A stretch of DNA of 64,000 bases from a virus. Both the position numbers and the translations under genes were made by a program. Every line of letters begins with the position of its first letter. The stretch's first letter is position 1. This document shows positions 8 to 60,061 of the stretch, in pieces. The notes under the pieces were generated by a model. That model was not told where the DNA came from. It made no database searches and saw nothing but the letters and a program-made list of their open reading frames with translations. The stretch is from positions 5,592-69,591 of the IMG/VR virus record IMGVR_UViG_3300049433_000110; one strand, written 5' to 3'.

Positions 8-1570
8 TTGAAGCGCATGCAGATCCTGGGGGCGTATCGGGATGTCGAGCTCGGCGATGCGGTGACGCCCCAATCGGATGCGCTGCAAGCGGAAGAAAAA
101 GCCCAGCAAGGCCTGTCGGATAACGGCATGCGGCGCCCCGCCGACCGCGAGCGCGAGTTGTATGAATGCTGCTGCGAGTTGGATATCGCCGGCTTCGAGC
201 ACAAACACAAGGGCAAGCTGACCGGGCTTGCCATCCCCTACGTGGTGACGATCGATGTCTCCTCCCGACAGGCCTTGTCGATTGTCAGGCGATTCGAGCA
301 GGACACCCAGGCGCTCCCCGTCGCCCGGCAGCGCTTCGTGAAATTCCCATTCGTACCGGGACTGGGGTTCTACGGCATCGGCCTGCTGCACATCCTGGGC
401 AACTCGACCAACGCCATCACGGCCGCCTGGCGCGAGATGTTGGACAACGGCATGTTTGCCAACTTCCCTGGATTCCTCCATGGCGATTCGGGACAACGCC
501 AAAACACCAACATTTTCCGAGTAGCCCCGGGCGCCGGTGTTCCGATCAAGACCGGCGGCATCCCGATTCGCGATTTCGCGATGCCGCTGCCCTACAGCAC
601 GCAGCAGATGCCGGCCTTGATGGCCCTCGTGCAGGACATGGCCGAGACCGGCCGGCGCATCGGCGGCACCGCGGAAGTGCAGGTGGGTGAGGGCAGGGCG
701 GACGTCCCGGTGGGCACCGTGATGGCCATGATCGATCAGGCGATCAAGGTCATGAACGCCGTGCACAAGCGCATGCATGCCGCGCAGGCGGAAGAATTCC
801 AACTGTTGAAGCGCGAGTTCCGAGAGAACCCGGAAACATTCTGGTGCCGCGGCTGCAAGTCGAAAACCCAGTGGGACAAAGAGAAATTCTTAGCCGCGCT
901 CAACAACTGCGACCTCGTGCCCCAAGCCGATCCCAACACGTCGTCTTCCGGCCAGCGCATGATGAAAGTGATGGGGCTAAAGCAACTCCAGCAAGCCAGT
1001 CCGAATCTGTACGACCCGATCAAGTGCGATACTGCGGCGCTGAACGCGATGGGATGGCCGAACCCGGAAGAGTTCTTCGTGCCGCCCGCGGCCCGCGCCG
1101 CCCCGCCGCCACAACTTCAGCAGGCGCAGGCGCAGATGAAGAACGAGGCCACGAAGGCAGCCGCCGATGATAAGCGCGCCACCGCTGATCTCATCGAGGC
1201 GCAGGCCGCCAACAAAGAGACCGAGACCAAGATCGCGGTCGGTCACTTCACTCCAAAGCAGGAATCGGCAGGATTGGCCGGATCTCAACAAGTCGATACG
1301 CCCGTGGATAAGGCCACCGCGCAAGCCAAACTACTCGATGCGCATACCCGCGCGCGCGAGGCCACGGTGCACGAGCGGGTGGCGGCGGCCGAGGATCAGA
1401 ACCGCGACCAAGACCGCGTGGCAAAAGAGCGTGAAGCGGCAATTAAGTTGGCATCCGATGTGATTCGGGCGCCTACTCATCCGATGAGCGGCAAGCCGGT
1501 CGACGTGGGTGATGCGGGTCACAAGGCGCACAAGATCATCCAGGATGTGGATCGAGGCATCACGCAATGA
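8..1570 (+). CDS. Portal protein (5'-truncated by window edge)
   Basis: FVKFPFVPGLGFYGIGLLH, PVGTVMAMIDQAIKVMNAVHKRMH and LVPQADPN resemble P22-like portals; Q/A-rich C-terminal coiled coil. Confidence 0.85.
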   Translation: MKRMQILGAYRDVELGDAVTPQSDALQAEEKAQQGLSDNGMRRPADRERELYECCCELDIAGFEHKHKGKLTGLAIPYVVTIDVSSRQALSIVRRFEQDTQALPVARQRFVKFPFVPGLGFYGIGLLHILGNSTNAITAAWREMLDNGMFANFPGFLHGDSGQRQNTNIFRVAPGAGVPIKTGGIPIRDFAMPLPYSTQQMPALMALVQDMAETGRRIGGTAEVQVGEGRADVPVGTVMAMIDQAIKVMNAVHKRMHAAQAEEFQLLKREFRENPETFWCRGCKSKTQWDKEKFLAALNNCDLVPQADPNTSSSGQRMMKVMGLKQLQQASPNLYDPIKCDTAALNAMGWPNPEEFFVPPAARAAPPPQLQQAQAQMKNEATKAAADDKRATADLIEAQAANKETETKIAVGHFTPKQESAGLAGSQQVDTPVDKATAQAKLLDAHTRAREATVHERVAAAEDQNRDQDRVAKEREAAIKLASDVIRAPTHPMSGKPVDVGDAGHKAHKIIQDVDRGITQ

Positions 1571-7502: not shown

Positions 7503-8051
7503 TTGAAGAAGCCGCACATGGGTAAGTCATTCGACATCGATATGACTGAGTACGTGCCGTTTGAGCGTGTGTCGGACAGTGATCTACAGCGCGCACGCAT
7601 TTTCAATAAATGCCGCATGTCTGACACCGGCTGTTGGTTGTGGACCGGTCCCACCAACGGTAAAGGATACGGTGTCTTTTACGTTGGCACGAAGAATCGC
7701 CACGCGCACCGGTGCAGTTACGAAGTCTTCAAGGGATCAATCCCCGAAGGGCTGCATGTCCTTCATGCGTGCGATACGCCGCTGTGCGTGAATCCTGCGC
7801 ATCTTCGGGCGGGCACGCATCGCGAAAACATGACAGATCGAGATACGCGGAAACGCAGAGATGTTCGCGGAAATCAGATCGGGACCTCAAAGCTAACTGA
7901 GCAGCAAGCGCGAGAGATAAAGTCATCTCCGCATGTCAAGCCGAAGATCCTCGCAGAGAAGTATGGAATTCGGCCAGAACACATTTGGCGTATTCGGACT
8001 GGCAAGAGCTGGGCACATGTGAAGCCCGCGGAGAATGTAGATGGCGATTAA
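7503..8051 (+). CDS. Free-standing HNH endonuclease (HNH_3 type with C-terminal HTH)
   Basis: CWLWTG..GYG, AHRCSY, VLHACDTPLCVNPAHLRAGTHRENM, KLTEQQAREIK; true start may be downstream. Confidence 0.9.
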   Translation: MKKPHMGKSFDIDMTEYVPFERVSDSDLQRARIFNKCRMSDTGCWLWTGPTNGKGYGVFYVGTKNRHAHRCSYEVFKGSIPEGLHVLHACDTPLCVNPAHLRAGTHRENMTDRDTRKRRDVRGNQIGTSKLTEQQAREIKSSPHVKPKILAEKYGIRPEHIWRIRTGKSWAHVKPAENVDGD

Positions 8052-8955
8052 TCTCTCGGCCATTAAGGACCTGTTGTTGCCAGGTCTCCGGGGTGTCACT
8101 GGCAAGTACGAATCCATAGCAAGCCAGCATGACAAGGTATTTACTAAATACACCTCCAAGATGGCGCTCGAGCGCACGGCTGAGATGCGCTACCTGGGGC
8201 TCGCGCAGCTGAAGACCGAAGGCGGCCAGACCGGCTTCGACAACAGCGCCGGTGAGCGCTACGTCTATAACCAGGAGCACATCGAGATCGGCTTAGGCTA
8301 CGCGATCACGCGCAAGGCCATCGATGACAACCTGTACAAGACGCAGTTCCACCCGTCGAACCTGGGGTTGATGGAGTCATTTCACCAATTCCAGGAGATC
8401 TACGCCGCGAACGTGCTCAACACGGGGACCACCTACAACTCCTCTGTGGGTGGTGACGGTGTAGCGCTCTTTTCCGCATCCCATCCGATCGATGGCAATG
8501 TCATTGCCAACACGCCTACCACGCAGGTGGATCTGAACGAAGCGACATTGCTGAATGCGATGGTGGCCGTCCGGACGAACTTCAAAGATCAGGCCGGCTT
8601 GAAGATGTTCGCGCGCTTCCGCAAGCTCATGGTGCCGCCGCAGCTGGAGCCGGTTGCGATCCGTCTCACGAAGACCGAGTTACGTCCGGGAACGGCGGAC
8701 AACGACGTCAACGCGATCATGTCTACGGCCGGCGGCATCCCCGAAGGCTACATGGTGATGGATTTCCTCACCTCGCAGTTCGCGTGGTTTGGACTCACCA
8801 ACATTCCGGGACTCGCCTTCATGGATCGCATCCCGTTTGAGACGGATATGCAGGTTGACTTCGTGACGGATAATTTGCTCGTGAAGGGATATTCGAGGTG
8901 GAGCTATTCGTACTTTAATTGGAGATCGGCGTGGGGAACCTTCCCGACTTCGTGA
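8041..8955 (+). CDS. Major capsid protein
   Basis: LLPGL...LGYAITRKAIDDNLY...GDGVALFSASHP; 304 aa; position. Confidence 0.88.
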   Translation: MAINLSAIKDLLLPGLRGVTGKYESIASQHDKVFTKYTSKMALERTAEMRYLGLAQLKTEGGQTGFDNSAGERYVYNQEHIEIGLGYAITRKAIDDNLYKTQFHPSNLGLMESFHQFQEIYAANVLNTGTTYNSSVGGDGVALFSASHPIDGNVIANTPTTQVDLNEATLLNAMVAVRTNFKDQAGLKMFARFRKLMVPPQLEPVAIRLTKTELRPGTADNDVNAIMSTAGGIPEGYMVMDFLTSQFAWFGLTNIPGLAFMDRIPFETDMQVDFVTDNLLVKGYSRWSYSYFNWRSAWGTFPTS

Positions 8956-30272: not shown

Positions 30273-30475
30273 GCGATCCAGGTCCATTCGACGACGCAGA
30301 TATCCTCATGCGCTTGCGTGGCATCGTGTCTGAGTTGCTCACCAAGCATACAGATGCCAAGGAAACCGGGAATTCAGGCTGCGGCATGGGGTCCGCCGAT
30401 GTTGAATTTGACCTCAATGGAGTAAAATTCACGGTGTCAATCAGTCTGTCTGAGGATGACGACGTTGAGCACTAG
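30269..30475 (+). CDS. Hypothetical protein
   Basis: GTGA overlap; acidic C-terminus. Confidence 0.5.
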   Translation: MSDPGPFDDADILMRLRGIVSELLTKHTDAKETGNSGCGMGSADVEFDLNGVKFTVSISLSEDDDVEH

Positions 30476-31613
30476 AAAAGCCAAGAAAAACACGCCGGAG
30501 CATAACGCTAAAATAGCGGCGGCGCACCGTGGCAAAAAGCTGTCCCCCGAGCATAGAGAAAAATGTCGACTGGCTTCCCTCGGTCGAAAACAGACTCCAC
30601 AGGAAATCGAGGCTCGTCGTTTAGCAAATACTGGCAAAAAGCGTTCGCCGGAATTTTGCGAACTCATGCGGCAACTCCAGGCCAATCGGACACCGGAACA
30701 GAAAGCCGCGCAATCCGAACATATTCGTCAACGGAACTTAAATAAGACACCGGAACAGAAAGAAAAGGAACGGCTCGCATTGGTAGCTCGCAATAAAGCG
30801 AGAGCCGGAGAAAAGCGGCAGTTTCCGCCGACACGCGAGGCAGGAAGTACTGATCCCGTATTTTACGTATATGAGCATTGGCGCTCCGATACCGGGCAGC
30901 CATTTTATGTCGGCAAGGGATTTAAAAAACGCGCCTATCAGATGACGATGCGCAATCGGCATCACATGTTTGCGCAGGACTATCTGAAGCGAATTGGAGC
31001 CTTGATCGAAGTCAAGATAGTCGCCGTATATTTGACTGAGCGCGAAGCATTAGATTTGGAAATTGAGCTAATAGAGAAGTGGCTTACGTCTGGTTGTAAG
31101 TTAGTCAATATTACTAAAGGCGGTGATGGGCCTACGGGCAGAAAGCACACGGAAGAGTGGAAGCGAGCGATGAGTGAGCGAATGAAGGGACGAAAGATGT
31201 CACCCGAAGCGCGCGCAAAGATTGCGGCTTCTGCAATTGGCAATAAGAGAGGATTAGGTAAGAAAAAGCCGCAGCACGTGGTTGATGCCATGCGGGCGCT
31301 ATTCACTGGAAAACCTAAATCCGAAGAGACCAAGAGGAAGATATCCGAATCGAAGAAGGGTAAGCCGTGGAATGGTGTGCACTCTCCTGAGCTTCTCGCG
31401 AGGAGAAGCGCAGAGATGACGGGCATCCCGTTCTCCGAAGAGAGGAAACTAACTATGCGCGGCATTCCGAAGAGTGAAACGCATAAACAGAAGCTGAGAG
31501 AGATCAATTTGGGGAAGACGCATGACGAGGAAACTCGCAAACTTCTTTCCGAAATTGCAAAAGCCGATTGGGCTCGTCGCAAGGCTAAAAAAGCCTTGGA
31601 AACAGGGGAGTAG
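30456..31613 (+). CDS. Free-standing GIY-YIG homing endonuclease with NUMOD3 repeats on both sides
   Basis: FYVYEH...FYVGKG..KRA, LVNITKGGDG; HTEEWK, KSEETKRKISES repeats. Confidence 0.88.
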   Translation: MTTLSTRKAKKNTPEHNAKIAAAHRGKKLSPEHREKCRLASLGRKQTPQEIEARRLANTGKKRSPEFCELMRQLQANRTPEQKAAQSEHIRQRNLNKTPEQKEKERLALVARNKARAGEKRQFPPTREAGSTDPVFYVYEHWRSDTGQPFYVGKGFKKRAYQMTMRNRHHMFAQDYLKRIGALIEVKIVAVYLTEREALDLEIELIEKWLTSGCKLVNITKGGDGPTGRKHTEEWKRAMSERMKGRKMSPEARAKIAASAIGNKRGLGKKKPQHVVDAMRALFTGKPKSEETKRKISESKKGKPWNGVHSPELLARRSAEMTGIPFSEERKLTMRGIPKSETHKQKLREINLGKTHDEETRKLLSEIAKADWARRKAKKALETGE

Positions 31614-46406: not shown

Positions 46407-49400
46407 GACGTTGCTCGCTGTGCGGTTGAGTGTTCACAGGATAAAAGCCAGAAGGAGGAGTGCCCACAGTGGGTCGGCACTGTGCGTTGCCCAGCAGACG
46501 ATGCCGATCAAGGCCATGCCACCGATGAGGACAGAAGCTTCCTGGGTAGTCATTCGGGCTTGCCCAGTGCGGCTCTAATCTCTTCACGGACGATCTGGCG
46601 CATCTGCTCGGGAGTAACACCGAGATAGCGCAAGGTGGTCTCTTTGGACTTCGCGCACGTCTCAGACCCATGGATACCGCCGAGGGCATACGCTTGCCCG
46701 CAGATACCACAATGGGCATTTGCTCCGGCGGTGCCTCGTACAAATTCAAAGTCCAACATGCTATGCGTCCTCACTCATCCCAACCCCACCCAAATCCGCC
46801 GCACCGCGCGCCACGGGATCGCCAGCAGATTCACCAGCAGCAGGAGTGCTTTGCCGATCATGGCGCGACCACATCACAATCGCCCCCATGCCCCGCCGGA
46901 CGGATGCACTGCTGCGGGCTTGCTTTTACGCAGACTGGGAATGCGCTGGCTGTCTCAGGGGGTCCGACGTATTGATCGCCCACGAACCCAGATTGTTGTT
47001 CGCTGGCTTTCTCCGATGAACTTTGCTCAATTCGCGCTGTAGACCGGCGCACGAAGTCCGCAATCTCCGGCCACTCCCCCTCGTATCCAGTGTTTACCTG
47101 TTGCAACAGGCGCAGCGCCTCATCGTGCCAACGAACATGCCTCTCAATTATTCGGCGGTCGCGCTCCGCTCGTATTCCGGCCTGTGCAAGCCCGGATACG
47201 TAGGGATCCGGCTGGTTGCCCGCTCCCGTCTCGTTACCGTGCGCTTCGTTTCCGAGCCCGCATGTGCACCGCTCGCCGCCATATTTCAGGCCGCAGGTAT
47301 CCGTGTGTGGCAGTCCAGCGATGCTCGGCTCATTCGCCTTACGATCTAACTCCATGATGACCTGCGTCACTCGGTCGCAGACCGTATCGAGCGCCCGGTT
47401 GAGGCTGCGCGCGTCGCTTGAGTCATAGGCCAGCGTGGTCGCCTTCCGTAATTCCTCTGCCCACATCTTAAGAACGTTGTTCCCATTTGAGGTCCGAAGT
47501 ATTGGTGAGTCGCTCATAGTGACGCCCGGTAACGTCTCGTGCGAATGACGTTGCTCGATTTGCGCAGCCTGCATAGCGATGGTTGCCGCTCGCAGGTACG
47601 GGTCGCCGCGCTCCATCTGTTCGACTGAATCGCAAGTCCCACCATGAAACTCGATGCGTTCCTTTCCGGACTCCAGCAACCTGACATACGCGCGATACAG
47701 GTCGCGCATTGGCCTTAGCAGCGGATTCTCATTTGAGGTGAGCGTTCGCTCATCCGATTTCCAATGCATGGCGCAGTTTGGATCAGGGCATCTGCCTTTA
47801 ACCATTGGAGTGCAGCAATGCGGGCAGGCGTTCGCATCCGATGAACTAACCACGGCTCATCTCCTTTTTGCAGAGCATGCAATCAGGCCCGCATTCCGAC
47901 TCAGTCCAGTCAGGCCACAGCCGCGTCATCATCTCCTCAACCGCTGGATCGTCAGCCATGCAGGAATGCTTCACCTGAAAAACAAGCTCCCGATCGCTGA
48001 GCTTTTCGAGGCGCATGCTTTCGACGACTCTGTCCGCCAGCGCGGCATACGCAGCGTTGGAGTCGTTCTCATCTTCGGAACTAACCACGTCCGTCCTCCT
48101 CGATGGCTCGGCGCAGTGAGTCGATACCCCACTGGCTGCTCGTGCCGTAACTGAATCCCCTGTAGGAAATCCGAGCCGCTACGAAAGATCGATCTCGTGC
48201 GTGCTTCAGTTCATCGCGCAGGCGCTCAATCTCATCCGCCGAACAACAATAACCGCAGCCCTCTACGCTGCGCGAGTCGTGGCCGCACTGCCGGCGCAGC
48301 CAAGCAGTGTTCGTTTCTGCAGTCCGAGCAACTGTTTCATTTGGCATGGGGAGGCTCCAACGCGGCTAAGGCGATCACGAGCGCGGTTCGATGCGCCAAC
48401 TCACCCTCGGACCATTCCTTGCGAACCTCCTCGCGCCACAAGTCAGGGCAGAGCGTCTCGTCGGCGATCATCGTGAGGGCCTCGCGCAGTCGCCCGATCT
48501 CAATCAGCAGAACGCCGCAATCGTGGTGGCAATTCGCCCAGGCGATGTTCCCGTGAGTCGGCCTCGCGCTCGCATGGGCGCGGCGGATTTGCTCAATCGG
48601 ATCATCCCGCTTCATCCGCTGCACCGTCTCCCGGCACTCCCCGCAGTCCTCGCCCAGCGGGGTGCCGTGAGGGCATTTGTCAGTCGTCATTGAGCGCCCT
48701 CTGTGTTTCTTTTTCATTCAGACCGACAGCCCTGCATCCGGCGTAGGTCGCGTGGTAGTAGTCCCGGTGTCCGCGACGCACGAGACCAACCGTCAACAAT
48801 CGCTCCAGTGACGGGTAGTCGGATGACTCCGGCCCGCAGTTGAAATAATTGCGAAAGCCCCAGTCCCGCTTCTTGTCTGTGCTGCGAGCGCCGAGCATGT
48901 GCCGGAGGTTGTTCATGTCCTCGACGATTTCCTCCGCGCTCACTTCAGCCTCTTGGCTTGCGCCTGTTGCTCAGCCAAGGCGCTTGCGTACTCGGTGCCG
49001 CGGTACATGGGTTCCTCCATACTGCGATCGTAGGCAGCCTCGGCCTTGTTGCGCCGGAACTGGAAGTACGTCTCTACAATGTCCTGCAGGTCACTGGCGA
49101 GTTCATCAATCTCGTGCTCGCTCAACTGCTCGTCCGGGTCGCCTGTGCCGAAGTGCTGGGCGAGCTCCAGGCATTTGGAATCGTAGGTACGCTTGGTCAT
49201 AAAACCTCCGCGAGCCACTGTCGAAGCGCTTCGGCTTCTTCCGGCTCAAGAATGATGGTGGCGCGGTCGGAGCGATCGATAATCACGACGCATCCGCCTC
49301 GAAGCGCCCAATCGATTGAAGAGGACGGCTGGACTTCCTCCTCAGTGGGGAGCGGGTCTAACTCGGATGTGCTCATGGCAGTTCAATCTCCTCGTAAGCC

Positions 49401-51876
49401 ATCGCAACCACCGGAGGCGGCAGCAACGGCAGTGCTCTCTCGACACGCTCTCGGGCTTCTGCTGTGCCTCGAATGTCGATCGCTTCACCCACGAGTACCT
49501 GCTCCTCGGGCGTCAGGCGTCTGCGGACGTGGTAAGCGCCCGGTCGATCCTGTTCCCACTGCAACTCAGTCATACCAACTCCCTTCAGTGCTTCAAACGC
49601 GAGCCGTCTTCGAACATTCGGGGCGCACGCGCCACCCACGCTGGCGTGCCACACCGGGCCGCCGAAGCGCAGCTCGATTCACTCATAGCCACTGTTCACG
49701 GTCAGGACGAGCGAGGCGCCGTACCGTATTCGGCTTGCAAAGTGCGGTTGCGCGGTCTCGAAGGCGAACCGGCAGTGGTTGCGGATCGCGGTTTTCTGTT
49801 CAGGTGTCATGCTGATTCCCTCGATTCGAAGCGACTCGGAGACCAATCACAATGGGTTTGCCCGAGTTCGGTTACACCGAGAACGACGCTGCAGCGCAGC
49901 CACCAAATGCAGTCCACGCACGTCTTGCCAACCGGCAGCCAAGGGACTTGATTGCTCGTCTCGGCCATGCGAGCAACGTCGTTCACAACTCAACTCCGCG
50001 AGCCCGAACATCGCCGGCCTTGAAGCGCCGATACCACTCGTCACCCCAACGCATCTTTGGCTTGCCGGCGCGGTAGTTGATCTGGTGGCAGCGCTCGTAG
50101 TACTTCGCGGCTTCATCGCCCTTGCCGGCTTCGACCAGTGCTCGCAGCTCATTCGCCTCATTGAGCGAACCGGGCCCAGTCGCACGCATGAGGCGTTGGG
50201 GCTGCTTTTTGGCAGGACGGGCACCCTTGGATATCCGGCGCTTGTTGTTGCGCTCCATCCAGGCCCCAAGGCCTGCAGGGCGCGGTACAACCTCGGCTGA
50301 CTGACCCATGTCTGCCCCCATGGCCGCTGCCACCAGAGCGCCTAAACCGAGTACTGAATTTCTCATCGTTGTTCTCCAAAGTAGGGGCTCGAATTCGTCC
50401 AGAGTTGGCTCACCGCAGTCGCCTGTTGGGCTTCGGCTTCTGCAGCCGCTTCAACTCGCGATACGCTTCGCGAAACAGCGGCTTGATTTGGTTGAGCTCC
50501 ACGATGCCGCCGCCGGCCCAGTGCAGGCGCAGCAGGAGGTTGTCGGGTTTCTTCATGGGTGGGCCTTCGGGGGCTGGGATGCGATCCATTTGGCATAAGC
50601 AGGATCGGCCATGGCGCAATCTGGACAGACGGGCGTGCAATACGGGTTCGGACTGAGCGCGACTCCCTCATCCAACTTGCACTGTTGCCCACATCCGCAG
50701 ATAAAGTTCTCACCGCATACGTTCTCATCGGCCCAGCGCTCGGCACTGGCCTCGGCGTTTTCAATCGGGTCAGGGATTCTCATTTGGGCTGTGCCTGCGC
50801 GGGAGCTGGGAGGCCGTAGATGTAGGCGAGCAATTCCTCGATCGCCTGTTTCAGCTGCGGTGGATGCGCGCCTGAACCCCGTCGCCAGCCAGCCGCACAG
50901 CCAACCACGTGAGCGATGTAGGCTTCGAGCTTGGGATCGGGAACAGGCATCTTCCCCACCTGTGCCCGCAAGCTCTGGATCTCCTGCTGCAAATCCATGA
51001 TTTGACCCATCAAGCCATGAATGCGGCGGTAGTCGATTTGGCGCTGTTCTTCGGCATCCGCGAAGTAGACGTATTCGCCCAAATCCTCCTCAACCATCTT
51101 GTAAACCGGGTCCCGGCCTCGACTGATGTTTTCCATGTCGAAGCGCTTCACGGCCTCACCGGCCGTTTCTCAGTCGCACTGCGCGCGTGATTGCCGCAGC
51201 GCGGGACCTCTTTGCCCAACTGCATCACCATCCACTGGGCCGGTTTGTCGCAGCGGACCCACCAGCCGTTCTTTTGGACCATGCGGGTGCAGGTCATGGA
51301 TGCTGACTCAGGTTGACGTAACCTGCGACCGCACCCACGATCAGCCCGGCAATGGTTAGAACGATCTCGAGACACAGCCGTATGCGGGCCCAGCGCGTCA
51401 TACTAATAGTCATCGTGGCTCCCGCATCGGCCGCACTCTGCGACCGCTCCGATATCCAACTTGGCCGCGCAGTTACCGCAGCGCGTTTTATCGCCAAACA
51501 GCCATAGCGCGCACCCGCCGAACAAACCCAACATGAGGGTGAGGATGGTTTTCATCGCGGCCGGCTCCCCTCATAGGATGAATGGCTCAGAGCGGCCACC
51601 CATCCGCCTTCGCCGTCGAGCATGTCGCGGAAAAACGAGCGCAAGTACACGAAACCATTGCGGGCGCCCGCGGGGCTGCGTTTTCGCCACTCGCGCCATT
51701 CTTGGGCCCGCCGCGCGCGGATCACCGGATCGGCTGGATTGAGTCCCTTGCGTTTCATGGCGAGCGCTCACTCGCCTGGATGTTGAAATGCGCGAAAGCC
51801 CATACAATCAAAACCGTGGCCGCAATCGTGAGCAGCGCGCATAGGGCAAATTTCAGGCGGTGGTTCATCGCGGTTT

Positions 51877-52299
51877 TCATGACAGAGTCCCTGTTGTTGT
51901 TGTGTTGACAGCGCTGATGCCGCGCTTGTTGATTCGTATCCCGCGCGCCGCCCCTTCGATGAGCGTAAGGACGCCACGTTTGGACAGGCGCACGAGATGC
52001 TCATGCGCGCCGTTGGCGGACTTGAAGCCGAGCGCATTGGCGATCTCTTTGCGCGTCGGGGGCCAGCCGTGCTCGTGGGTGAACTGGCGCACGAAGGTGA
52101 GCACGCGCGCTTGGGCGGGTGGCAGGCGATCGAGGCGCCGGTTCTGCGCGACGAGCTCGCCCAAGGCGGCGAGGGATTCGGCGTAGTCCTTCAGCTCGGC
52201 GATGGCGGGCGTGTCGAGGGTGGCGAATTCCGCGGCGGCGGCGTCCAGGTCGCGGCTGATGGATTGCAGGCGGGTGGCGAGGGCGGCGTAGGTGGTCAT
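51877..52299 (-). CDS. LexA DNA-binding-domain protein without peptidase domain
   Basis: LPPAQARVLTFV...GWPPTRKEIANALGFKSANGAHEHL..L.KRG...ARGIRI. Confidence 0.8.
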   Translation of the reverse strand: MTTYAALATRLQSISRDLDAAAAEFATLDTPAIAELKDYAESLAALGELVAQNRRLDRLPPAQARVLTFVRQFTHEHGWPPTRKEIANALGFKSANGAHEHLVRLSKRGVLTLIEGAARGIRINKRGISAVNTTTTGTLS

Positions 52300-52348
52300 G
52301 GCGTCACCTGAAAAATATTTTCAGCGGCGCGCGTTGCGAGGTCGCGAA

Positions 52349-52732
52349 TTATTTGATGGCGATTTCCCACTGGGTCGGGAGGGGTTGATCGATGAAGCCG
52401 GACGCCTGTGACTCGAGGTGTCGCACAGCGGCCTTCAGGGACTCGTTCTCGCGCCGGTAGACGCCCAGGGTGGCGTTCATCATCTTCATGGCCCGCACAT
52501 GGCCCGGGGTCGCTTCCCAGCCCTCGGGCGAGATCAGCAAGCCCTTGCGGACTACCCAGCCGGACCAGACCGGGTCCAGCATCCCCAAGTCCCCGGCGAT
52601 CAATTTCAGGGCGGCCGGTGGCGGGGAACTTGCCCCGCGTTTCCAGCGCCGAGCGGTCGAAATGTCCACCCCACAAATACGCGCTATCTCGCTGATATTT
52701 ATGCCGTAAAGCGGGGAGGACGGATCTCTCAT
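52349..52732 (-). CDS. HTH + DUF3653 protein, XafT-like Xer activation factor candidate
   Basis: EIARICGVDISTARRWKRG HTH; WSGWVVRKGLLISPEGWEATPG DUF3653-like motif; adjacent to dif-like site. Confidence 0.72.
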   Translation of the reverse strand: MRDPSSPLYGINISEIARICGVDISTARRWKRGASSPPPAALKLIAGDLGMLDPVWSGWVVRKGLLISPEGWEATPGHVRAMKMMNATLGVYRRENESLKAAVRHLESQASGFIDQPLPTQWEIAIK

Positions 52733-52756
52733 TGCCCCAGATTAGCGCTCTTGCGA

Positions 52757-52784
52757 GTTGCGCATAATGTATAGTGATTGAAAT
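52757..52784 (+). other. dif-like attP (XerC arm, core, degenerate XerD arm)
   Basis: GTTGCGCATAA-TGTATA-GTGATTGAAAT vs E. coli dif GGTGCGCATAA-TGTATA-TTATGTTAAAT: 10/11, 6/6, 6/11; intergenic. Confidence 0.8.
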
Positions 52785-52785
52785 C

Positions 52786-52813
52786 ATTATAGTTTTTCTC
52801 CGCGATATCGCAA
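52786..52813 (-). promoter_or_regulatory. Predicted promoter for the DUF3653 gene, reading through the dif-like site
   Basis: Minus-strand TTGCGA (52813-52808)-N16-TATAAT (52791-52786). Confidence 0.55.
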
Positions 52814-52814
52814 G

Positions 52815-53081
52815 TTACAGGTCTTTTTCTGCATGATCAACTTGCGTATTGGCATCTCGCAAGTTGGATTGCAGCATGGGGCGGGCAAGCTGCCTGCGGT
52901 TGCGCGGCAGCGTTTCTGCGCCGAATTTCTTGCGCATTTCAGCGAGCGCGCGATGGATCGTGGCCATGTGAACGTTGAAATAGCTGGAGAGCTGCTGAAT
53001 CGACATCCCGGCTTCCCGGAATTGGCGGATGGAGAACTTCTCGACAGGGGTCAGATCCCCCTCGGGACGACGCTCATTCAT
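52815..53081 (-). CDS. Small HTH protein next to att site (possible directionality factor)
   Basis: AGMSIQQLSSYFNVHMATIHRAL HTH. Confidence 0.6.
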   Translation of the reverse strand: MNERRPEGDLTPVEKFSIRQFREAGMSIQQLSSYFNVHMATIHRALAEMRKKFGAETLPRNRRQLARPMLQSNLRDANTQVDHAEKDL

Positions 53082-53383
53082 GGGGATATCCTCGCGACGA
53101 TGCTCTTGACCGTCTCGATGGCCAGATCACGGTCGCAGTTGACCAGCGTTCTCATACAACCTCCCGCCTCGCCGTGATTCGCACCAGCCACACCGATCCG
53201 AAGGCAAGCCCGGTTTGCCACCAAGCGGCATGCAGTGAGCCCAGGATCGCCAAGATGACCAGCACGGCGGTCCAGAAGACGATCACGGAGAGCTTCGTGC
53301 GCGGCTCGGTGTGGGGGAGGCAGCGCAGGATCTGCGACGGTTGGCCCGGATGCCAGCGCGCGCACGAGGAGACCGGGGTGAGG

Positions 53384-53659
53384 TCAGTCATCCTGCACAT
53401 CCGGCGGCCGACCACTGCGAGGATGGGCCACGGTTCTGCGATGCCCCACCGCAGGCGGGATATCGGCGCGCCCGGCTTCGGTCACGATCTTCGCCCTGTC
53501 GTGATCCAAGAAGGCGACCGTGATCGCGTATTCGCCGTCCTCGTTCCAGCCGATCTGACCCACCAGCATGCCCGGTGAGCCCATCGCGGCCGAGGCGCGC
53601 ACGCGGTCGAAATAGGGCAGCAGTTGCTCGATCTGCTTGGCGTTGAGTTTGATTCTCAC
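53384..53659 (-). CDS. Hypothetical protein
   Basis: GTGA overlap with upstream gene. Confidence 0.5.
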   Translation of the reverse strand: MRIKLNAKQIEQLLPYFDRVRASAAMGSPGMLVGQIGWNEDGEYAITVAFLDHDRAKIVTEAGRADIPPAVGHRRTVAHPRSGRPPDVQDD

Positions 53660-55101
53660 GGCAGTTGTTCCACCACCGCCAGCAAATTAGCCTCCGCCTC
53701 TTTCGCCTGCGAAGCCAACTTGCGATCCTTCTTCTGATCCAACTTGCTGTCGCGGTTCTGAAAGACAGCCCATTCCTTGGCGAATTTGCATACGGATTCC
53801 ATCAACAGGTACACCTTCAGGTCGAGGCTGGCGGTCAGGGGTTCGGAATCGCTTTGCAGCGAAGTTGGCTCCTCAGCAGGCGGGGAGAGGGCGTCGCACG
53901 GGGTATCGCGCGCTTGCCTCACGGAGTCCTCACGGATATCCGCGCCCTCAGAAACGGTTGTTACGATTGCGGGCTTCTCCCGCTCCGCCTTCAGCGCTTC
54001 CTGGTCGCGCTCCAACGCAGCCCGATCCTCCGCGATCTGTTGCGCCCATGCCTGTTGCGCCGCTTCGACCAGCTCCCGCTGACGAGTTTCCTCCTGGCGC
54101 TGGGCTTCTACCCGCCGTTCCTCGGCCAACTGCGCTTCCTGACGAGCCAGTAGCGCCGAGTTCTCTTCCGCCATGCGTTTGGCATTGGCCTCGGCCGCTG
54201 CTGCGATCTCGCGCCGTATACGCTCGTTCTCAGCCGCTTGCCGAGCCGCTTCGGCATCTCGTGCAGCCTTCGCTACCCGTTCCTCCTCGGCGATTCGAGC
54301 CCGCTCCACATCGGCCGCCGCCTGCTGCCGCAACCGCTCGCGTTCCAATTCCTCGCGGGCCAGGCGCTGTACCTCCGCCAACCTTTCCCGCTCAACCTTC
54401 GCGGCAGCCTCATTGGCCAGCCGCACCCGCTCGTTCTCGGCCCGCTCCTCAGCCAAACGCTTCTGCTCCGTCTCCACCGCGACCGCATTCGCGTGAGCGG
54501 CCCGCAGCCGGATCAGCGTCGTGGCCTTCGCGCCTTCGGCCTCCTTTTGGAACTCGGCAAACGTATGGTCGACAACAATCGACTCGATATCCTTGATGAA
54601 AATGGTGATGTCGGTCGAACTGCGATTCGCGACCGCCAACGCGGCGTAACGGATGTCATCCTCGATGCGGCCTCGGATGGTGGCGATGCGCTGGGCTTCG
54701 GCCGCAGCCTTCGCTTGGCGCTCGTTTTCCTTGCGCGTCTCCTCGGTTTTAATCTGCAAGTCAACCGGTCCCTCGATCACCAGCAACTCGTTGGTGATGC
54801 GCTCGGCCTCAGTGTCGAGTTTCTTGCCGAGGTCCAGGATCGGCCGCTTAGCCGCCTTGCGCAGTTTCTCCACTTCGTAGCGCGGCTCGCGGATCTCGGC
54901 GCGTGCTTCGCAGGCTTCCTTCATGCCCTTTGCGGTCGCAACATCAAACACAACGCTGCCGTACTTCGCGCGCAGATCCGCAATGCCGGCGGCGACCTTG
55001 TCAATCTTGACGAGCGCGGTGGAGACGGCTTCGAGTTGGGTGGCGAGCGAAGTGTCTTCCGGGGACGCGACGGGCTCGACAGCAGTGGGCTGGGCGCTCA
55101 T
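53656..55101 (-). CDS. Coiled-coil early protein (DUF1351-like N-terminus)
   Basis: R.E.EK.RK..K.P.L..GK..D.EA..I pattern then long E/A/R coil. Confidence 0.65.
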   Translation of the reverse strand: MSAQPTAVEPVASPEDTSLATQLEAVSTALVKIDKVAAGIADLRAKYGSVVFDVATAKGMKEACEARAEIREPRYEVEKLRKAAKRPILDLGKKLDTEAERITNELLVIEGPVDLQIKTEETRKENERQAKAAAEAQRIATIRGRIEDDIRYAALAVANRSSTDITIFIKDIESIVVDHTFAEFQKEAEGAKATTLIRLRAAHANAVAVETEQKRLAEERAENERVRLANEAAAKVERERLAEVQRLAREELERERLRQQAAADVERARIAEEERVAKAARDAEAARQAAENERIRREIAAAAEANAKRMAEENSALLARQEAQLAEERRVEAQRQEETRQRELVEAAQQAWAQQIAEDRAALERDQEALKAEREKPAIVTTVSEGADIREDSVRQARDTPCDALSPPAEEPTSLQSDSEPLTASLDLKVYLLMESVCKFAKEWAVFQNRDSKLDQKKDRKLASQAKEAEANLLAVVEQLP

Positions 55102-55751
55102 TCCTGTTGCTCCAGAGTTTCGCGGTGCTCATTCGCCGCCGCCTCAACTTCCAGAGGCACTTCGGCACCGGCAGCGGCATACAGTGCCCATACCGATTTG
55201 CGAGTCTTGAGTAACGAGTCCATCGTCTGCTGGCCACGCAGGGCTTTGATCGATTCGTCGTCCGACGGTTTCTCAGCAGTGTTTCCCGACGTCGTCGCGG
55301 TATTGGTCGAAGCACCGTTGCCGCCGGCAGATTGAGGCACGGTGCGATGCATCGTCATCTGAAATGGGCGCTTGCGAGGCAACGCGATCGTAACCGGCTT
55401 ATCGGCCTCAATGTCCGGAGACCCCCATACACGGATACAATCGTCGTCGTTGTACGTCGTCGGGAACAGCGTGACGCGCTTACCGATCCACTCCTGCACC
55501 TTCTTGCCAAACATGTCCTTCAGGCAAATGCCGTTGGTCTTGTTGAGCGCGAGTTGCTTCTCGGTGCGGTCGAAGCTGATGAGCCCCTTGACCTGCGGAC
55601 CTTTGTCGCCGATCAACTCCTCGAGCTTCACGCCCGCGATCTTCAGTGTGACTTTTTTGCCTTTGAGGTCCGCGGCTTTCAGGAAGCGGCCGGGATACAA
55701 TTCATCCCAGTCCACCGGTGTTGGAAACACTTTTGCTTGTTGTTCAGCCAT
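55098..55751 (-). CDS. Putative ssDNA-binding/annealing partner of the exonuclease
   Basis: FLKAADL...LNKTN...WIGKRVTL; directly after RecE-like gene. Confidence 0.55.
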   Translation of the reverse strand: MAEQQAKVFPTPVDWDELYPGRFLKAADLKGKKVTLKIAGVKLEELIGDKGPQVKGLISFDRTEKQLALNKTNGICLKDMFGKKVQEWIGKRVTLFPTTYNDDDCIRVWGSPDIEADKPVTIALPRKRPFQMTMHRTVPQSAGGNGASTNTATTSGNTAEKPSDDESIKALRGQQTMDSLLKTRKSVWALYAAAGAEVPLEVEAAANEHRETLEQQE

Positions 55752-55752
55752 G

Positions 55753-56625
55753 TTATGCGGCCTCCAGGCCTAAGTCGTTTATGTCGTCCTGCTGACCGTA
55801 GTACCAAGTCGGCAGGCTTACGTTGTGTTCTTCATCACGCCCTGGGCCCGGCCACTTTCCAGCGGCTTCGCATTCGCCGAGGATCTTCAATAGCTCGAGA
55901 TAGCGGTCGCGTCCCTCGATCAACACGTCTTCGGTGATGTTGTAGACTATGACGGCATGCGGCGCCTTTGGTTCGACCACGATTTCCTTCATGCGCGGCG
56001 CGATACCGGTGATGGCCTCGTAACCATCATGGTAGAACGCCCACTGCATGGCGTAGCCGTAGCGTGCGCATGCGGCCCCAAAGGGATGCTCGCGGCAGTC
56101 GGCCGATGTCTTGAGTCCCACAACGTAGCGCTCACCGTCGATGCGCGTCAGCCAGTCGGCCCGGCCTTTGCAGCGACGCACAGGCAGCCCCCATTCGACC
56201 GACAAATCCCATTCCATCGAGACTTCCGGGTCACCCTGCTCGAGATAGCGCATCGCCGTTGCATCGGCGCGGATGGCTTCTTGAATCGCCATGGCCGCGT
56301 CGCGCTCCTGGATTGTCAGAATCGACTTTCCCGGATGCTCCGCGACGAACGTCTTCCACTGCTCGCCGCTTTGAGGCGCGATGTTGCCGCTGCCGTTCTT
56401 CGTCAGCTTGTCCCAGATGATGAACTCGGTATCGAATCGTTCGGGCTCCAACACGGAAACATGGGCGGCCTTCCCCAGCGACAACGGCTTGGTCTGGATC
56501 GGATGCGTTCCGCGATAGATGTAGCGCTGGGGCGAATGCTCCAACTCCTTCAGCCGCGACATGTTGACCGCATCAATCTCGCGGTAACTCTCGTACGGAA
56601 CGCGCGATGTGATCAGGCCGCCCAT
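55753..56625 (-). CDS. RecE/Exo VIII-like PD-(D/E)XK exonuclease (DUF3799-like)
   Basis: G.AAH..VLEP, EVS..W, CKGRADW, GLKTS, YGY.MQ.AFY. Confidence 0.8.
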   Translation of the reverse strand: MGGLITSRVPYESYREIDAVNMSRLKELEHSPQRYIYRGTHPIQTKPLSLGKAAHVSVLEPERFDTEFIIWDKLTKNGSGNIAPQSGEQWKTFVAEHPGKSILTIQERDAAMAIQEAIRADATAMRYLEQGDPEVSMEWDLSVEWGLPVRRCKGRADWLTRIDGERYVVGLKTSADCREHPFGAACARYGYAMQWAFYHDGYEAITGIAPRMKEIVVEPKAPHAVIVYNITEDVLIEGRDRYLELLKILGECEAAGKWPGPGRDEEHNVSLPTWYYGQQDDINDLGLEAA

Positions 56626-56627
56626 GA

Positions 56628-58826
56628 TTACACCTTCACCTGTTCGATCTCGCCACCCGAGACCGCCAGCGCCATGAAATCCTGTGGCGTCGCCTTGCGC
56701 ACCGTGATGGTGGCCTGAATGATGTGCGCGGTCGCCTGCGCCTCGTTTTTGGCTTCCACGATGCGCAGGGGTATCGGGTCTCCCTCGGCGGTGCGGAAGT
56801 CGTCTTTTTGCTTGTGTTCGAATGCGTAATGAGGCATGTGTGTCTCTTGTTGTGTTAACTAGCTTGTCTACGAAGGGCTGTGGGCGCCGTCAACGCATGC
56901 CACCGGCTCAGCACGCGCCGGCCCTCGCGCTGCCTGACGCCCTCGTCAAACCGCTCCTGCAGCGCCTTGTCAGCGCGCGCCTGCTCCAACGCTCGGGCCG
57001 CTTCCAACTCGCGGGGGCCGCGGCGGTCAGTGTATCCAACGACGTTGAATCGAATCTTCATTTCGCCTCCGGATAAATCGTGGGCACTTCCAACACCCGC
57101 TGCAGCCGCTCGCGCTTCTTCAGCGCTTCCAACTCCCAGCGCATTTTGTCGACCAACTCGGCATCGGTGAGTCGATAGGTCTCGCGGACATCCAGCGCCC
57201 AATCAGCCAGGTAAGGCGATCCCGCCGACTCGGTGATGTCCTGCGCCCCGCCAAGAGCGCAGGGGGAGGAGTTGGAAGCCGGCGGGATCGGGTCAACCGG
57301 GAGCAGCGCTCGTTGCGCCAATTCTTGGAGGTATTCGTGTAGGTGTTCGTTCATTGCACCGTCCTCGATATCGGAACGGTCACGCGCGTGCCGATGCCAA
57401 TCACCGATTCCAGCTCGTATTGCATCCGCGAGACCTTCAGGCGACGCCGCTCGACCTCCATTTCGAGGTCCTGCAGCTCCAGCGCCTCACGGATCAACTC
57501 GGCGAACTGTTTGCCGAATTCGGTGCTCATGGCCTTGTCACCTCGACGCCACGCGGTTCCAACTTCGCGACCAGGGTTTCGAATTCGCGCGGCGACAACC
57601 GAAATGACGCCTCGCCCGCATACAGGCAGTAGACGACTTTGTGCGCCTGCACAGTGCTGATGTCGTGCGCCATGAGGGATATTTCGGCATGTTTGACGCG
57701 CGTTTCTGCGAGGCAATCATGGTTGCGAGTGCGCACATAGACCGACGCGCGCAACGGACCCCAGTCGATGTACAGCCGCCGCGGGAAGCCTTTGCAGGGC
57801 TTCAACTCGATCTCTTCGCGCTCGGGGAGAGGGTCCGCATCGCAAATCGCCCCGCCGGCTCCTGACGATTGTGGTGACGGATTGTTCACGATCGGACCCA
57901 AACTTGTTGATTCGGTGCTCATGGCGCCTTCACCTGCGCAGCCAGCCAACGATGCGCGGCCTCGGTATCGCGCCGAGCTAGCTCCACCACCATCGCCTGC
58001 AGCGGGTCAGCGGCGTAGGCGGCAGACTGCGCGGCGTAGGCTGCGGCGCGGGCGGTGAGGTCGTTGGTGGGGGTGCTCACGAGAGTAATTTCCGATAACG
58101 GCAGCTCGCCGGGTGATACGCCACGTCCAGTCGATCCGCATGCTGAGTGCGACAGGTACAGAAGTGCGTCACCAGGAGGGTGCGTAGCTTCGAGACTTCG
58201 GCCTCAGCATCGGCCAACAGGTCCGCGAGCAGGCGCACGGAGTTGGGTCGGGAGATTTTGCAGGCGGCGCTCACAGCAGTGGGGATGTGCTTAACCATGG
58301 GTCCAGCCCTCAAACCATTCCTGAGCATCTTGGAGAGGGCCAGTGCGGTAGGAACTGTTGAAACAGTCCGTGGCTCCGGTCTGAGCCATGTACGCATCAA
58401 TGCCGAGTTCTATCAGCCGGCGCCTCGCGACGGCGATGTAATCGAACCGTGCCAACTCGGCGGCGGTCATGAGCAGTGGATCAAATTTCACAGCGACTCC
58501 TCGCCTGCGTCTTCGAGCTCGACGTCATCGATCTCACCGTCGCTGTCGCGCTCAAAGTCCCATTCGTGGGGGTCGCTGTATTTGGCCGAGAGCTCGTCGA
58601 CTCTCCAGCTTGGAAAGCTGTCGACTGGGGTGCTGTGCGGGGCGGGAGGACTCACGGCGCGACGCACATCCCGCAGGTGATACCAGCGCCAGGAGACGTT
58701 GTTCGGATAGCCGTTGACGACCGCGAATTCCCAGCCGTAGCGGCCCATGCGCTTGCCGACGATGGGAGCCGGCGCCTCAAAGCAGTACGTCGGGCGAGCG
58801 GGTCGGATCAGGGTGCCGATGTTCAT
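56628..58826 (-). other. Cluster of small early genes downstream of PL
   Basis: Overlapping short ORFs 56628-56837, 57058-57354, 57527-57922, 58291-58491, 58488-58826. Confidence 0.6.
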
Positions 58827-58987
58827 GACGCACACCGCGCGCAAAAGAACACCCACGGGGCCTTCGGGTTCGGCTGCACGCGATCATGGGTGCTGACGTG
58901 CTGGGCGCCGCACTTCGGACAGGCGCCGAAGTGGGCGCTACCGCCGATCAGGTTGCCGAGGGTCTGGAGCTGAGTGGGCTGGGACAT
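58823..58987 (-). CDS. 54-aa Zn-ribbon microprotein, first gene of PL (not in ORF track)
   Basis: MSQPTQLQ...CPKCG...FFCARCAS; GGAG RBS; ATGA overlap with next gene. Confidence 0.65.
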   Translation of the reverse strand: MSQPTQLQTLGNLIGGSAHFGACPKCGAQHVSTHDRVQPNPKAPWVFFCARCAS

Positions 58988-59013
58988 GCTGCTCTCCGGG
59001 GTCGATGGAGAGC

Positions 59014-59053
59014 AAAGTACAGCAAGCTAAACACAGAGTCAAGCATGCTGTAC
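59014..59053 (-). promoter_or_regulatory. PL promoter with two operators
   Basis: TTGACT-N17-TACTTT on minus strand; GTACAGCAAGCTAAAC 59017-59032 and GTCAAGCATGCTGTAC 59038-59053. Confidence 0.8.
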
Positions 59054-59186
59054 CTAAAAAGCGTGATGCTGCGCGATAGACCTAAGTCGTTATGACGACG
59101 GCGTAGGGAAATTTAGGATAAGGGGCTCAGGATGTACGCTAGAAAACCAGAGACGTTCTGCTTGGAAAACGTGGTTTTCGTTCGAT

Positions 59187-59456
59187 TCAGTCGGACGATT
59201 TCGGCTTCAGTGTCCGATAGCGGCCGCTGTTGGCGGAGCCGCCGGGGCCGCGGTCAGCGCCCCAAATCAAGTAATTGGCGTCTGTGCTCAATGCCTCGAG
59301 GACCAGCAGGAACGTCTTCAGCTTGAGGTCCTTCGTACTGCCATTCTCCCACTGAGAAACCGCGCTCTTTGTCACGCCCGCAAGCTTAGCAAGCTGCTCC
59401 TGGGTCAGGTTTCTGGCTGCCCGTAGCTGTCGTATCCGATCGCCCATCGTATCCAT
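59187..59456 (-). CDS. CI-like XRE repressor, HTH only
   Basis: GDRIRQLR...LTQEQLAKLAGVTKSAVSQWENG; divergent from cro. Confidence 0.85.
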   Translation of the reverse strand: MDTMGDRIRQLRAARNLTQEQLAKLAGVTKSAVSQWENGSTKDLKLKTFLLVLEALSTDANYLIWGADRGPGGSANSGRYRTLKPKSSD

Positions 59457-59479
59457 ATGACCAGCATAAGGAACACTGG

Positions 59480-59520
59480 GTACAGCATCCTTGACCTCAA
59501 GGTTTAACATGCTGTACTTT
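59480..59520 (+). promoter_or_regulatory. PR promoter with two operators
   Basis: TTGACC-N18-TACTTT; GTACAGCATCCTTGAC 59480-59495 and GTTTAACATGCTGTAC 59502-59517. Confidence 0.8.
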
Positions 59521-59527
59521 GGTAGCT

Positions 59528-59761
59528 ATGCTCAAAGCCGACGTTATCGCTCATTTTGGGAATTCTCCGGTCGCGGTCTCCAAAGCGTTGGGAATTACCC
59601 GCAGCGCGGTAAACCAGTGGCCTGAGATCGTCCCGCTCAAGAGCGCCTTGCGGCTGCAGTCCATTACGAATGGCGAGCTGTCCGTAGACATGACCGTGTA
59701 CGAGCTTCCCGATCTTCCCACGCGTGCGCACCGAACGGTACGCCGCGCCGCTGTTAGTTAA
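59528..59761 (+). CDS. cro: Cro-like regulator
   Basis: MLKADVIAHFG...VSKALGITRSAVNQWPEIVP...TNGEL. Confidence 0.85.
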   Translation: MLKADVIAHFGNSPVAVSKALGITRSAVNQWPEIVPLKSALRLQSITNGELSVDMTVYELPDLPTRAHRTVRRAAVS

Positions 59762-59851
59762 GTGTTCTTAACAAAGAGCATGACACGCCGCACAAATCTG
59801 TTTTGTGCGAATCAACATAACATGGCTGATCGTTTATCCAGTGTGTCAGGG

Positions 59852-60061
59852 CTATTTCGAAGCGATAGGCGCTTCCGAATAGCCGGCTTCGTGCGCCTTT
59901 TTCATGCAATCCGCATGGCTCGCCAGTGCCACGGGAACGCCGATCAGACCAAATCCCCAGCCATCGCAGTGCAGCACCTGACCACTGGGATTGGCAAGCA
60001 GGGTCTTTTGGCTGACACAGCCGCAGAGAGCCAAGCAGATAGCGATTACAGCGATTTTCAT
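59852..60061 (-). CDS. Small lipoprotein
   Basis: MKIAVIAICLALCG|C lipobox; one further Cys pair. Confidence 0.7.
   Translation of the reverse strand: MKIAVIAICLALCGCVSQKTLLANPSGQVLHCDGWGFGLIGVPVALASHADCMKKAHEAGYSEAPIASK

Follow-up and report, generated by a model that had tools for sequence, protein, structure and literature searches.

Described systems that exploit Xer recombination

The TLC satellite of Vibrio cholerae has a double-stranded attP in which the XerC arm and core are intact and the XerD arm is degenerate, and it encodes an HTH plus DUF3653 protein, XafT, on the XerC side (PMC6744903, PMC9226527). Recombination of the TLC type is XerD-first and FtsK-independent, and it depends on direct contact of the activator with XerD. 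XafT-driven integration requires the first or fifth base of the XerD arm, and sites with neither T at the first position (T1) nor G at the fifth (G5) were largely unrecovered in the published synthetic library (PMC9226527).

Tailed IMEXs are not new, since LME-1 of Legionella, a T7-like podophage (PMC12407071), exploits the XerL/dif system of its host as an IMEX (PMC9765430). The phage described here is proposed to resemble it in being temperate and tailed and in inserting at the host dif by means of the host dimer-resolution recombinase. LME-1, however, has only 30 kb and depends on the single recombinase XerL, whereas here the two-recombinase XerCD system would be used together with an encoded XafT-like gene; in the 2022 paper a XafT-like activator is posed as an open question (PMC9765430).

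Tailless double-jelly-roll phages carry xafT-like genes with dif-like attP sites (PMC12715192). In the dif-type double-jelly-roll prophages of Vibrio and in CTX-I inoviruses, a xafT-like terminal prophage gene lies beside a dif-like attP, as in our locus; the attP may be full, left-armed or right-armed, and the lysogeny module has moved between unrelated virion types (PMC12715192). Those viruses are tailless or filamentous, whereas the carriers considered here are tailed phages of 39-70 kb, of at least five virion types, with soil hosts. The gonococcal genetic island, a 57-kb IMEX, is also a large element having a dif-like site in which the XerD arm is degenerate, but it is a T4SS island rather than a phage and reportedly is without a XafT-like gene (PMC5357621, PMC6744903).

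A sequence-only reading of the present DNA had counted only filamentous phages, satellites and genomic islands among the IMEXs, which is too strong in view of LME-1 and the double-jelly-roll phages (PMC9765430, PMC12407071, PMC12715192). So far, published cases of XafT-type XerCD hijacking comprise a satellite, inoviruses and tailless phages. We found no report of it for tailed phages in an open-access library, and the supplementary list of 250 DUF3653 genome matches of PMC6744903 may include tailed prophages.

Genome and recombinase genes

The virus record is a complete genome of 69,591 bp with terminal repeats. The window, that is, the whole stretch of 64,000 bp that was analyzed, comprises its bases 5592-69591, and the 5.6 kb outside it encode the terminase large subunit and a small serine recombinase.

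G000:262-1023 (outside the window): small serine recombinase, 253 aa; PF00239 91.9 bits, best PHROG "DNA invertase"
G000:2428-4044 (outside the window): terminase large subunit; phrog_38, E 3e-82
8-1570, plus strand: portal protein, 3' part, the gene start preceding the window; phrog_1216, E 8.7e-19
8041-8955, plus strand: major head protein; phrog_371, E 1.6e-7
59187-59510, minus strand: cI-like repressor; HTH_3, E 8.6e-15, and PHROG repressor families
59519-59761, plus strand: Cro-like regulator, divergent from cI; P22_Cro, E 3.6e-16

With a terminase large subunit, portal and major capsid protein all present, the phage belongs to the Caudoviricetes, and profile searches confirmed the full cI/cro switch that had been read from the sequence alone. 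Neither a tyrosine recombinase (PF00589) nor the large-serine recombinase domain PF07508 occurs in the whole 69,591-bp genome, the small serine recombinase included. ParA (PF13614) and ParB (PF02195) are also absent from the whole genome, which sets it apart from P1/N15-like phage-plasmids. The earlier reading had found no tyrosine recombinase, serine recombinase or ParAB; the first and last of these absences extend to the complete genome, whereas the second holds for the window only. The search of the missing arc that it had proposed turned up the PF00239 protein, so the genome is not recombinase-free. Small serine recombinases are usually not integrases. No convincing repeats of the kind that flank invertible DNA were found around the resolvase and terminase genes.

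The gene for the terminase large subunit is encoded on the strand opposite to the portal gene, and some 1.4 kb separate it from the gene for the small serine recombinase (L335). Within the structural region, positions 30456-31613 of the window hold a homing-endonuclease-like gene with three repeated HNH-type stretches.

The dif-like attachment site

52757-52784, plus strand: dif-like attP 28-mer, intergenic; 22/28 to canonical dif

The site is composed of the XerC arm GTTGCGCATAA (52757-52767), the core TGTATA (52768-52773) and the degenerate XerD arm GTGATTGAAAT (52774-52784). Our reference for canonical dif was a 28-mer read from locus L234, which we take to be identical to E. coli dif. Against this reference the match first noted was borne out: 22/28 overall, with a 15-bp run across the XerC arm and core, while the XerD arm scores 6/11. 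The maximum in 200 first-order Markov genomes was 20/28, and the second-best match elsewhere in the phage genome was 17/28. Core and XerC arm are almost perfect, including the retained outer AAAT, and together with the degenerate XerD arm they form the arrangement typical of TLC. The XerD arm has neither T at its first inner position nor G at its fifth, of which a TLC-type site would have at least one.

The xaf gene and its product

52349-52732, minus strand: xaf, candidate XafT-like Xer activation factor, 127 aa; DUF3653 match above cut-off

The xaf gene is intact and is transcribed away from attP. A gap of 24 bp separates its ATG at 52732 from the XerC arm; the adjacency of site and gene reported earlier therefore stands, with the distance corrected from 25 bp. 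The HMM search that had been suggested for this HTH plus DUF3653-like gene gave 27.8 bits to DUF3653 (cut-off 22.4) and 22.5 bits to HTH_3, just under the cut-off of 23, and Xaf thus has the XRE-HTH plus DUF3653 composition of the TLC-type proteins. Its match to the NCBIfam VC1465/XafT family NF040522 (44.8 bits, E 1.1e-11) lies below the cut-off of 70 bits: Xaf is a distant relative of that family, outside its curated membership. Among 50,697 phage records, matches were limited to two Vibrio CTX/TLC entries with 25.5% identity, which we infer to be XafT although the records name them DNA-binding and hypothetical proteins. Alignment of Xaf to the Vibrio protein with hhalign gave a probability of 95.7.

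The AlphaFold model of Xaf (pLDDT 88.9) has an XRE HTH, a DUF3653 hairpin and a long C-terminal helix. A Foldseek search of the PDB with this model returned nothing at E<=0.001 and weak XRE-HTH matches only, and a predicted complex of an Xaf dimer with the XerD catalytic domain of a candidate host scored 0.01 and carries no weight for or against the contact. The PHROG label "tail assembly protein" for Xaf is a weak annotation, which we rejected because of the Pfam and NCBIfam matches. In a Xanthomonas inovirus a DUF3653 protein has a packaging role and is dispensable for integration, and DUF3653 is able to bind DNA in that case (10.1101/2024.03.19.585677).

TLC differs from the phage in being a small rolling-circle satellite, whereas the latter is a 69.6-kb terminase/portal/HK97-type phage with a cI/cro switch. 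The proteins are only 25.5% identical, Xaf scores under the family cut-off, and xaf abuts attP, while VC1465 is reported to lie in a region of about 1 kb flanking the XerC arm. The G at the fifth position is kept across the xaf-cassette family as in TLC, though it is absent from the arm of this phage. Judged from its sequence, the locus appears to work like that of TLC; its membership in the TLC type is tentative, given a score under the XafT cut-off and the lack of T1 and G5 in this genome.

Conservation of the cassette

An alignment of Xaf with 91 of 120 listed homologs was used to retrieve related loci. The 116 homologous loci obtained (30 from viruses, 6 from genomes and 80 out of 140 from metagenomes) yielded 87 unique upstream regions. 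Sixty-four of these show an XerC arm and core with no more than 3 mismatches over 14 positions and a degenerate XerD arm; in 52 of them the distance to the start is exactly 23 bp. The mirror form, with the XerD arm retained, was found in 8/87, and one region (L064) has a perfect dif. Outside these counts are two distant small-virus loci, two sites with 4-5 mismatches, six loci with an xerC-like gene upstream, which were identified by eye, and four siteless loci. The pairing of site and gene is a conserved cassette.

The fifth base of the XerD arm is G in 58/64 unique sites, and 60 have T1 or G5. Agreement with dif is 30, 22, 27 and 12%, respectively, at bases 1, 2, 6 and 7. The 64 sites are related and do not represent independent events, but these neighboring columns serve as the internal control. 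The other four sites have neither T1 nor G5, as in this phage.

Related virus records number 26, with lengths of 13-55 kb. Nineteen are at least 90% complete, and all nineteen carry the site, 16 in the first form and 3 in the mirror form. A tyrosine recombinase is encoded by two of the nineteen and a resolvase by one; 16/19 lack both PF00589 and PF00239, and ParA was found in 0/27 records, with five related records analyzed to within 1.1 kb of an end. None of the 26 contains a canonical dif. Searches with 17 queries found terminase, portal or capsid homologs in 18 of the near-complete relatives, and the nineteenth shares a portal cluster. The representatives tested matched family models for the P22 coat, Terminase_3, gpA and several PHROG terminases; by our reading of the clusters, the carriers represent at least five tailed virion types.

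Two tailed genomes, G016 (L310:1355-2197) and G024 (L306:4539-5432), have the xaf-attP cassette plus a tyrosine recombinase; these enzymes are 44% identical to each other and are not XerC-like. The mirror-class sites are those of L012, L014 and L019 (in tailed records G010, G012 and G017), L285-L287, L289 and L290, with an intact XerD arm, a degenerate XerC arm and the C at position 5 retained in 8/8.

At L034:8817-10357, L158:864-2324, L068, L093, L097, L107 and L114, xaf shares its operon with an additional xerC-like gene, and there is no dif-like site. The xerC-like copy of L158 is above the XerC cut-off, and the operon of L034 is in a prophage remnant with a terminase, beside an apparent tRNA gene and cysS. 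Matches to the XerC arm and core of dif also occur inside a protelomerase gene (L375:3960-3990; YDC107_1 and PhiR46_1, N15-like linear E. coli phage-plasmids), with no xaf match, and may be a coding coincidence. Several viral contigs of 9-102 kb have XerC-arm and core sites with degenerate XerD arms and no xaf match (L362, L368, L378, L388, L394, L406, L412 and L414).

Neighboring genes and possible control elements

52786-52813, minus strand: candidate sigma-70 promoter, directed at xaf from beyond attP; 10/12 consensus match
52801-52812, no strand: 12-bp palindrome of the type TGCGA-N2-TCGCA, possible operator or accessory site, recurrent in relatives
52335-52346, no strand: second palindrome copy directly after the xaf stop, operator or terminator stem; also a terminator-like call
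52815-53081, minus strand: gene for a small HTH protein, XerD side of attP, a usual neighbor of the cassette; weak HTH matches
51877-52299, minus strand: gene for a LexA-type DNA-binding domain, downstream of xaf; PF01726, E 1.6e-19

The candidate promoter is the sole such match in 900 bp, where 0.3 would be expected. Because it lies beyond the XerD arm, integration would separate it from xaf, and loss of the promoter in this way would fit the report that XafT was undetected from integrated TLC (PMC9226527). As a family trait the promoter was rejected: 14/64 sites have one at a score of at least 8, compared with 20% in shuffles. In view of this lack of enrichment, the candidate in this phage is tentative.

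The palindrome is 16 bp beyond the XerD arm and overlaps the candidate -35 element. A copy with at most 2 mismatches occurs beyond the XerD arm in 32/64 related sites (1.3% in shuffles), mostly 6 or 16 bp off, the motif having been chosen by eye from the same sequences in which it was later counted. Directly after the xaf stop, a second copy is found in 23/60 relatives (2.3% in shuffles). The small HTH gene has tblastn matches in 63 collected loci. The LexA-type gene has matches in only 2 and is therefore outside the conserved cassette.

Integrated elements and the likely host

The contig L064 (1,351 bp, metagenomic) has its perfect dif 23 bp from xaf; it continues for 67 bp past the site and contains no virion gene. 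The Xaf of L064 is 70% identical to that of the tailed phage G016 and groups with six tailed-type Xafs, with support of 94/82 in a tree of 82 rows whose bootstrap is unsettled. This one contig has the arrangement predicted for an integrated junction, although it may instead be a free element with a perfect dif. L064 would then be the one integrated case among 65 sites of the XerC-arm class, with 64 in the free form.

Three overlapping draws of 401 bacterial genomes near the best genomic matches contained xaf in 29, 28 and 22 genomes (an unpublished genome enters the first two counts, and nothing claimed here depends on it). For 51 bacterial xaf loci, a canonical dif was within about 1.5 kb in 36, a degenerate site only in 3, and neither in 12; some xaf genes are distant from dif, often beside xerC. 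Small integrated elements are bounded by 20 unique hybrid sites, of which 13 keep G5, 5 keep T1 and 4 have neither. The mirror geometry is integrated at dif in five chromosomal elements of 1.2-12 kb.

Very small xaf elements of about 0.9-2.5 kb, some in tandem, are present at dif in Steroidobacteraceae-like chromosomes (L127, L139-L142, L147, L427, L431-L433 and L440-L442) and are possibly minimal satellites or remnants.

The sequence-only reading had proposed a search for related prophages flanked by dif and a hybrid dif. Small xaf elements alone were recovered; no whole tailed prophage at dif was found in the 401-genome draws and a genome scan, which covered the flanks of part of the matches with our own hallmark queries. 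At least 113 viral-contig loci have a canonical dif, and among the 17 loci listed the xaf matches came from small stretches, 6-15 kb in length, without a link to any tailed genome. The xaf copies of G295, G485 and G028 have no adjacent dif and no matches to our virion hallmark queries. No junction of this phage was seen in the contigs of two soil runs matched to 47000-60000, where the second run gave short pieces only and the first had 66 contig loose ends beyond those listed. One contig of the source-like soil run spans attP uninterrupted at a depth of 52.

The XerD of one genome with an xaf element has close relatives named Povalibacter and Steroidobacteraceae. Because of these relatives and of XerC arms that resemble those of the phage, Steroidobacteraceae are the likely host of this soil phage.

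Proposed mechanism and alternative explanations

We consider it probable that this phage is an XerCD-exploiting tailed phage of the TLC/XafT type that integrates by means of host XerCD. This assignment is based on the site, the gene, the conservation of the pair, the absence of an integrase in most carriers, and the same geometry at dif in small elements. We infer from these that Xaf activates XerD, which host is used, that this phage integrates and that a promoter switch operates. In the resulting scheme the phage is temperate, probably infects soil Steroidobacteraceae, and would lysogenize in the manner of the Vibrio TLC satellite. After circularization of the phage genome, host XerC would bind the intact attP arm, and Xaf would recruit and activate host XerD independently of FtsK. 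A full crossover of attP with the chromosomal dif would insert the 69.6-kb genome at the terminus. The products would be a canonical dif just upstream of xaf, made up of the phage XerC arm and the host XerD arm, and at the other end a hybrid site with a poor XerD arm, which FtsK could hardly excise. Integration would probably also cut xaf from its promoter, stabilizing the prophage until induction.

It is unlikely that the cassette, while functional in the family, is decayed or secondary in this phage, which would then use its small serine recombinase or not integrate. Such decay would account for the XerD arm without T1 and G5, the PF00239 gene and the lack of a junction in two runs, but xaf is intact, the XerC arm and core remain near perfect with their outer AAAT, and 4/20 integrated hybrid sites likewise have neither T1 nor G5. 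The 253-aa recombinase, moreover, is without PF07508 and has "DNA invertase" as its best PHROG, and small enzymes of this kind are usually not integrases. Slightly less likely again is the recruitment of XerCD by the site and Xaf for resolving dimers or concatemers of an extrachromosomal phage circle rather than for integration. The 64/65 sites in free form and the lack of a whole tailed prophage at dif agree with this; the absence of ParA from 27 records and of ParB from this genome does not, nor do the integration of the same geometry at dif in host chromosomes and the perfect dif of L064. Recombination of attP with attP should also be poor, because sites with a poor XerD arm recombine less well than dif with dif (PMC6744903).

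The motif could also be a mere promoter or operator of an HTH regulator gene, its likeness to dif being incidental. The fixed spacing of 23-24 bp to the start codon, the N-terminal XRE HTH of Xaf and the DNA binding by DUF3653 in another phage (10.1101/2024.03.19.585677) are what an operator would predict. The maximum of 20/28 in 200 simulated genomes, the isolated retention of G5, the mirror sites that keep the XerD arm instead, the perfect dif of L064 and the hybrid junctions in chromosomes are not, and we regard this explanation as highly improbable.

Integration through host XerCD with a phage-encoded XafT homolog, as first proposed from the sequence, is better founded for the family than for this genome. 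For the family, the conserved pair, the G5 rule, L064 and the small elements at dif make a mechanism with a dif-like attP and a XafT-like activator well supported. For this phage it is less certain, given the lack of T1 and G5, the small serine recombinase and the lack of a junction.

Implications

The occurrence of a dif mimic with a likely Xer activator gene in many unrelated tailed phages suggests integrase-free chromosomal insertion. We lean slightly toward a broader view in which the xaf-attP cassette of about 0.5 kb is a portable integrase-free lysogeny module of unrelated tailed lineages (P22-like, T7-portal-like, gpA-terminase and others, of 39-70 kb). The module would make dif a shared insertion site of soil Caudoviricetes that integrase-based tools call lytic. 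It would have its own control, a promoter and palindromic operator across attP that integration severs. It would also have a mirror form, in which the XerC arm is the degenerate one and for which the XafT model as yet has no explanation.

With the 64 natural sites, a rule known only from measurements on a synthetic library can be checked against evolution. Testable answers to a puzzle of the XafT papers, the failure to detect XafT after integration, also follow from the cassette, and it supplies mirror-image sites and xaf plus xerC operons for mechanistic work. If the proposed reading is true, hijacking of the XafT type also occurs in large tailed phages with many kinds of virion, and in soil viromes a lytic lifestyle can no longer be safely read from a missing integrase.
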